DNA of 64,000 nucleotides. Source: Escherichia coli. Lineage in GTDB: Bacteria > Pseudomonadota > Gammaproteobacteria > Enterobacterales > Enterobacteriaceae. Numbering within the stretch: position 1 is the stretch's first letter; the number at the start of each line of letters is the position of its first letter. The notes beneath the pieces are model-generated. The model ran no database searches. It was not told the origin of the DNA and was given only the letters and a program-made list of their open reading frames with translations. The position numbers and the translations under genes were made by a program. Shown in pieces: positions 47,500 through 47,947 of this stretch. Where the stretch lies: assembly GCF_003334355.1 (NCBI RefSeq), contig NZ_QOWP01000010.1. One strand, 5' to 3'.

Positions 47500-47636
47500 T
47501 GCGCCTGAAAAGACGCGTTTAGCGTCGCATCAGGCATTATGGCGCAGTTGCCGGATGCGGCGTGAACGTCTTATCCGGCCCACAGGAACTGTAATCTTTG
47601 TAGACCGGTTAAGATGCGTCATCGCATCCGGCAAAC
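47500..47636. repeat. BIME-like cluster of about three REP palindromes
   Basis: gcgcctgaaaagacgcgtttagcgtcgcatcaggca; gccggatgcggcgtgaacgtcttatccggcc; tagaccggttaagatgcgtcatcgcatccggca; abuts the cbpM stop. Confidence 0.75.
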
Positions 47637-47641
47637 ACACA

Positions 47642-47947
47642 TCACGGATGAGCTACAAACCGGGAAAGCCGCTGGCGCAGCAGGCGGTTTTCCTGCTTCA
47701 GGTGCGCAATATCATCCATTAACGTCAGCGCCACCGCGATCCCAGGCCAGTCCAGAGCCAGTTCATGACGCAGGCGTACTGCGCGTTGCACCACGATGGC
47801 GGCATGGTCGTCAAATACCCAGGTTGTTTCCTGGATCTCACGCGGTTCAACCACCCCCAAACCGACAATTTCATTCAACTCCTCTTCAGAGATGCCGGTA
47901 TGCAGGCAAAATTCGGTAATAGTAAAAGTCACCGTAACATTAGCCAT
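47642..47947 (-). CDS. cbpM: Chaperone modulator CbpM (101 aa)
   Basis: Internal Met [36 protein letters not shown] of track ORF 47642..47962; start overlaps cbpA stop. Confidence 0.9.

Follow-up and report, generated by a model that had tools for sequence, protein, structure and literature searches.

The 64-kb window (the whole stretch of DNA that was analysed) was identified as the E. coli tor-cbp region by its ORF list and the K-12 annotation. The genes and stop codons around the junction of interest, as given by these two sources, are as follows.

44348-46894, + strand: torA
47488-47490, + strand: TAA stop codon of torD, 12 nt before the first paired base of REP1 (47503)
47642-47644, - strand: TGA stop codon of cbpM (from the ORF list), 9 nt from the head of REP3; the predicted composite hairpin has its first paired base 7 nt away
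47642-47947, - strand: cbpM
47947-48867, - strand: cbpA

The torD and cbpM genes are convergent, and their stop codons are separated by a gap of 151 nt (47491-47641). This gap is identical to that of K-12 MG1655 at all 151 positions (K-12 1062399-1062549). The lack of differences from K-12 was rejected as a signal of constraint, because the flanking genes differ by 1.8% and an unchanged gap is expected by chance with P of about 0.065. The best overall match to the region was found in strain MLI023K1, with 100% identity over 451 nt. Two small ORFs that overlap the gap, 47555-47722 (+) and 47614-47919 (+), are mostly antisense to cbpM and were regarded as unsupported. Downstream of cbpA, yccE (49127-50008, +) seems to be interrupted in the window, its longest ORF being 293 aa compared with the 418 aa of the K-12 gene. 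The annotation of MLI023K1, a strain without differences from the window across the 451 nt compared, treats yccE as a pseudogene containing an internal stop. Elsewhere in the window, a tRNA gene is located at 17494-17578 (-; Rfam RF00005, 57.5 bits), and the segment 36397-36819 (+), which strongly matches the Rfam family of the cspA thermoregulator 5' UTR (159 bits), is probably the leader of a regional cspA paralogue.

The REP head motif GCCKGATGCGRCG, with at most one mismatch, occurs seven times in the window compared with 0.6 expected, and none of 100 shuffles reached seven. Three of the seven matches are in the torD-cbpM gap, and every one of these belongs to an imperfect palindrome. The REPs were typed by alignment to the published Y and Z2 consensus sequences quoted in PMC11208160, and the following features were assigned.

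47498-47536, - strand: REP1, Z2 type, with its head at 47523-47535; best match to the Z2 consensus (29 of 33); hairpin of -18.8 to -20.1 kcal/mol
47502-47580, - strand (cbpAM-sense): match to Rfam RF02564 (naRNA4/CssrE) spanning Y, linker and Z2; the score is 69.1 bits (gathering score 59.5), and the model is covered in full (1-77)
47537-47549, no strand: short head-to-head linker TTATGGCGCAGTT between REP1 and REP2, 13 nt, S-type of the BIME-2 unit, which aligns to the linker of the naRNA4 model
47548-47584, + strand: REP2, Y type, with its head at 47550-47562; 32 of 35 matches to the Y consensus
47585-47599, no strand: tail-to-tail linker between REP2 and REP3, the loop of the predicted composite hairpin
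47600-47634, - strand: REP3, atypical, with a Y-like head GCCGGATGCGATG at 47620-47632 (one mismatch) and a degenerate tail; the Y and Z2 alignments tie at a score of 17

The first-pass annotation had placed a BIME-like cluster of three REP palindromes in this gap, the last of them within a few bases of the cbpM stop. This description was confirmed by the alternating orientation of REP1 (-), REP2 (+) and REP3 (-), by the end of REP3 at 47634, 7 nt short of the stop codon, by the Z2/Y alternation, by the above-threshold naRNA4 score, and by the identity of the gap to that of K-12. REP2 and REP3 form an inverted pair, the type of unit that is cut or moved by a REP-associated tyrosine transposase in REPINs, and 12 nt of the pair are perfectly complementary (47548-47559 and 47623-47634). 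The three elements have the properties by which REPs are recognized, that is, imperfect palindromes of approximately 35-40 nt with the head GCC[G/T]GATGCG and a matching tail, except that the tails of REP1, which has TTTTCAGGCGCACA in place of TTATCAGGCCTAC, and of REP3 are degenerate. They are also extragenic, all three being in the gap, and are transcribed at a gene 3' end, since an RNA end has been mapped on the + strand at 47639.

BIME-2 elements consist of Y and Z2 REPs joined by a short linker, and they are repeated in tandem with a copy number that differs among strains (PMC3333891). REP1 (Z2, -) and REP2 (Y, +) reproduce this alternation and the short head-to-head linker, and a strain-variable number of tandem copies was found at this single locus, as described below. 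Because RF02564 was built on the 77-nt Y+Z2 unit of the BIME-2 element REP325 (PMC4550694), the match to this family tests the BIME-2 unit independently. The position of the atypical REP3 is occupied by a canonical Z2 REP in the alleles with five and seven REPs; owing to REP3, it would also be possible to class the entire window allele as an atypical BIME. These results indicate that the cluster is a known chromosomal BIME-2-type element at the torCAD/cbpAM convergent junction of Escherichia, present here in its K-12 three-REP form. An entry for the locus was not found in the supplements of Ton-Hoang 2012, RepRanger 2025, Sutormin 2019, Dar and Sorek 2018, or a 2026 preprint on REPs.

Among known systems, REP325 (yjdM-yjdN), the source of naRNA1-6, shares with the cluster its alternating Y and Z2 REPs and the short head-to-head linker. 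REP325-type BIME-2 elements also have in common with it a repeat period of about 100 bp in longer alleles, a strain-variable copy number, U-less hairpins in the 3' UTR, and partly Rho-dependent attenuation. On the other hand, only one Y+Z2 unit is complete in the window allele, its third REP being degenerate, and this allele is located between convergent genes, whereas REP325 is within an operon. The above-threshold RF02564 match on the cbpAM-sense strand, together with a 2015 report that any RNA with Y and Z2 hairpins can act with HU (PMC4550694), raises the question of whether the cluster gives rise to a naRNA4-like nucleoid-associated RNA that condenses the chromosome with HU. We consider this very improbable, because the family model is simply a BIME-2 unit, no discrete small RNA has been documented at the locus, and the 2026 preprint, whose authors include the senior author of the 2015 report, detected no measurable chromosome compaction by REP325 or naRNA4.

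A second BIME had been noted near 53435, and it proved to be real. It lies between ymdF and rutG at 53435-53535 and consists of the following parts.

53435-53464, + strand: Z1 REP, 27 of 29 matches to the Z1 consensus
53475-53487, no strand: IHF-like site ATTCAATATATTG in a long L linker, matching the IHF consensus with one mismatch
53502-53535, - strand: perfect Y REP, 35 of 35 matches to the Y consensus

BIME-1 elements comprise Z1 and Y REPs across a long linker carrying an IHF site (PMC3333891); the element at 53435-53535 has this arrangement and is a BIME-1. Like the torD-cbpM cluster, BIME-1 (RIP/RIB) elements contain inverted REPs in a 3' intergenic region, but they are single-copy elements with Z1 and Y REPs and a long conserved linker with an IHF site, whereas the cluster has a Z2 REP and a short linker. 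The proposal that the cluster itself could be an IHF site was not borne out, as the IHF consensus was absent from 47491-47641 even when one mismatch was allowed. With no mismatches, the strict consensus was absent from both BIMEs, the site in the BIME-1 linker requiring one. Since IHF sites belong to BIME-1 linkers, IHF binding fits the second BIME and not the cluster. The Rfam family ES036 (CssrF) was matched at 53457-53499 (-), on the BIME-1 linker, with 38.5 bits against a threshold of 37.6, and this "sRNA" family appears to be the BIME-1 linker. Two further single REPs were observed in the window, at 26409-26445 and, as a Y type on the - strand, at 27852-27886.

It had been predicted that the junction would vary structurally among strains, and a comparison of REP copy number among E. 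coli genomes bore this out. In addition to loci split by insertion sequences, five gap lengths were found.

Gap of 92 nt: REP1 and one hybrid hairpin (two hairpins)
Gap of 151 nt: K-12 type, three REPs
Gap of 153 nt: O157:H7 type, three REPs, diverged
Gap of 254 nt: five REPs
Gap of 355 nt: seven REPs

The longer alleles have a period of 101 bp, which corresponds to one Y+Z2 pair. The 92-nt allele, represented by locus L006, is equivalent to the 151-nt allele of the window minus 59 nt, and the deleted segment is bounded by a 6-nt direct repeat, GATGCG, at 47554-47559 (+) on the left and 47613-47618 on the right. When the flanks alone were used as the query, the locus was found in 5,421 of 5,426 complete E. 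coli genomes. In an even sample of 60 records, the gap was 151 nt in 20, 92 nt in 20, 153 nt in five, 254 nt in six and 355-356 nt in seven, and the locus was split in two. A query for the 92-nt junction returned about 1,900 genomes, a slight overcount because this query also bridges two pieces in a few 151-type genomes, and an allele-specific query for the K-12-type REP2-REP3 segment returned 1,766 genomes, in agreement with the sample. The whole 355-nt gap was also used as a query for the seven-REP allele, and the resulting 1,241 genomes at a coverage of at least 80% were discarded as a count inflated by other BIME-2 loci; the seven-REP allele was instead counted with the flank-only query. 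One such confounding array, located elsewhere in the chromosome of K-12-type genomes (for example, NZ_CP152467.1, 4613872-4614214), aligns with the seven-REP allele over 343 nt at 82.5% identity.

The 151-nt gap was found in K-12, DH1 and a BL21 derivative, the 153-nt gap in O157:H7 and O55:H7, the 92-nt gap in O104:H4 C227-11, the 254-nt gap in an O25b:H4-ST131 strain, and the 355-nt gap in the type strain ATCC 11775. This distribution, judged from named strains rather than from a tree, suggests that the gap-length alleles follow lineage. The length of the gap (92, 151, 153, 254 or 355 nt) is thus a simple strain marker that appears to be lineage-linked.

A scan of other species with CbpM, using one genome per species, gave 78 loci. 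E. coli-type REP heads directly after cbpM were observed at only six of these, all in Escherichia; a convergent torD was present at five of the six, and the contig of the sixth ends too early to tell. Five REPs are present at the junction of E. whittamii. The longest array seen in this analysis, in E. albertii NBRC 107761 (L011, 1807-2362), contains 11 alternating REPs (six Z2 and five Y) over approximately 550 nt. The first REP begins 7-9 nt past the cbpM stop at five of these six loci and in the E. coli alleles examined. The junction with its BIME is therefore a genus-level feature, with fixed outer REPs and a variable middle. The idea that an ancestral intrinsic terminator after cbpM was replaced in Escherichia was unsupported as a generalization, because a terminator-like site within 120 nt was found by a strict rule at only 11 of 65 loci from other genera.

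The flank-only query also revealed 123 genomes (about 2%) in which the flanks are not joined. Both split loci examined carry an insertion sequence of a kind established as REP-targeting (PMC1525189). In the first (L009), IS1397 has entered the REP1 loop, with duplication of TTTA. In the second (L010), IS621 is inserted in GTAG|GCCTGAT, a site that reads on the opposite strand as ATCAGGCCTAC, the natural target of IS621 (PMC11208160). The REP targeting known for IS1397 (IS3 family) and for the bridge-RNA recombinase IS621 (IS110 family) thus follows the same pattern at this junction, and the mobile elements observed here are REP-targeting insertion sequences, not the REP-associated tyrosine transposase. 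The junction is a natural landing pad for both elements. In the window allele, the exact target ATCAGGCCTAC was absent from the three torD-cbpM REPs. It was observed elsewhere in the window at 53454-53464 (+), in the Z1 REP of the BIME-1, and at 26409-26419 (-), in the single REP at about 26409-26445.

RNA folding of the gap was more stable than that of shuffled sequences, with z = -6.9 for the cbpM strand and z = -5.4 for the torD strand. Minimum-energy and centroid folds on both strands predicted that REP1 folds as a separate hairpin and that REP2 pairs with REP3. These predictions and the published RNA end are located as follows.

47548-47634, both strands: predicted composite long hairpin of REP2 paired with REP3; -42.6 kcal/mol (+) and -47.2 kcal/mol (-)
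47639 (K-12 1062547), + strand: published steady-state RNA 3' end (Term-seq, Adams et al. 2021, supplementary file 1)

No intrinsic (Rho-independent) terminator, that is, a G+C-rich hairpin followed by a U run, was found in the gap on either strand. The 61-nt Term-seq string maps exactly to 47589-47649, so that the + strand end at 47639 is 5 nt past the REP2/REP3 hairpin. The suggestion that transcript ends at this junction are tied to the palindromes is upheld on this strand by the K-12 data. This end was called in LB at OD 2.0 and in a third sheet (M63 glucose, by its caption), and its reads were modest (approximately 1,000-1,500). On the opposite (cbpM) strand, the Term-seq tables of Adams et al. 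2021 contain no 3'-end call within the gap. In the bicyclomycin data of the same study, a Rho termination region on the - strand has its peak at K-12 1062039 (score 6.49, p = 2e-9), equivalent to window position 47131, within antisense torD; the position is approximate because it rests on 800-nt comparison windows. Such a position implies passage of cbpAM transcription across the entire REP cluster and about 500 nt into the opposite strand of torD. Both results were published for K-12, whose gap sequence is identical to that of the window.

These data fit a general model in which transcripts terminated downstream by Rho are trimmed by PNPase and RNase II to U-less stem-loops, including REPs (PMC6061677). 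The cluster has a stable U-less hairpin in common with REPs that stabilise 3' ends and with the stem-loops that protect Rho-terminated transcripts (Newbury et al. 1987; Dar and Sorek 2018), and, as with those stem-loops, the steady-state 3' end lies a few nt downstream of the hairpin; exonucleases would likewise take part at this locus, and the half-life of the RNA may be affected. The data also fit the 2026 preprint, in which REPs are described as local terminator-plus-stabiliser elements which, between convergent genes, are two-way terminators and decay blocks, and in which they were counted in 207 of 704 E. coli convergent gaps (about 30%). According to the same preprint, terminal REPs do not generally extend mRNA half-life.

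Taken together, the most probable interpretation, in which we have considerable confidence, is a BIME-2 cluster of variable and IS-targeted DNA at which Rho-ended transcripts are trimmed to REP hairpins. According to this interpretation, the cluster would be transcribed from both sides, with transcription entering or crossing the REPs, and Rho rather than an intrinsic terminator would end transcription from each side. The RNA would then be trimmed by 3'-to-5' exonucleases back to the U-less REP hairpins, and the trimmed hairpin would set a stable 3' end and shield the upstream message. For cbpAM, protection of the mRNA is something we infer, since no - strand 3' end was called in the gap, and any effect on expression is likewise put forward conditionally. 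At the DNA level, the near-identical units render the site liable to gain and loss of REP pairs as well as to deletion between short repeats, and the REPs also serve as specific targets of IS1397 and IS621.

The same observations bear on the possibility that the cluster has no host function and is a selfish or neutral repeat tolerated in convergent 3' gaps, with neutral variation. The copy number of 2 to 11 within the genus, the degeneration of REP1 and REP3 in the window allele, the tolerance of IS insertions, and the presence of REPs in about 30% of E. coli convergent gaps are all consistent with such a repeat. However, the location of an RNA 3' end at the hairpin, and the conservation across alleles of the outermost REPs and of their distance to both stops while the middle varies, speak against it, and we regard the absence of function as rather unlikely.

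The short distance between the stop codons and the REPs also suggests a translational brake, in which a REP near the stop codon would stall the terminating ribosome, leading to mRNA cleavage, tmRNA rescue and a lower yield of the upstream products CbpM and TorD. The rule of Liang, Rudd and Deutscher 2015, as summarised in PMC12306157, applies to REPs that begin within the 15 nt that follow a stop codon. At this junction, the cbpM UGA is 9 nt from the head of REP3 and the torD UAA is 12 nt from the stem of REP1, and the 7-9-nt spacing after cbpM recurs at five of the six other Escherichia loci and in the E. coli alleles examined. On the other hand, REPs inserted into a short convergent gap fall near a stop codon by geometry alone. 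Such a brake would lower CbpM, which is an inhibitor of CbpA, and could act alongside the 3'-end role; its occurrence is possible, with the balance of the evidence leaning against it.

At the DNA level, gyrase was also considered. The cluster might be a binding and cleavage site at which gyrase absorbs the positive supercoils generated by convergent transcription. Across the genome, gyrase cleavage is enriched in BIME-2 elements, chiefly at their Y REPs (PMC6379681), and the placement between convergent units fits this role. Yet not all BIME-2 elements are cleaved but only a subset, the literature yielded no cleavage data specific to this locus, and the window allele has a single Y REP, which is mostly lost in about one-third of strains (the 92-nt allele). 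Such a role for this cluster seems doubtful.

The strain variation and the RNA end are as the BIME-2 literature predicts, and the element is already known. Approximately 200 convergent gaps in E. coli contain REPs, this one among them, and the significance of the cluster beyond annotation is small. A more far-reaching proposal is that the REP array is a lineage-specific dial on CbpA and CbpM, in which the stop-proximal REP would stall ribosomes and reduce CbpM relative to CbpA, and the extent to which cbpAM transcription survives or proceeds as torD antisense would be determined by the number of REP pairs (2 to 11). We hold this to be highly speculative and improbable; were it true, CbpA activity in stationary phase and tor expression would vary among phylogroups with 92-, 151-, 254- or 355-nt gaps even though no coding sequence had changed. 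The junction nevertheless provides a natural allele series that is convenient for examining the effects of REP number on 3'-end formation and on the expression of two convergent operons.
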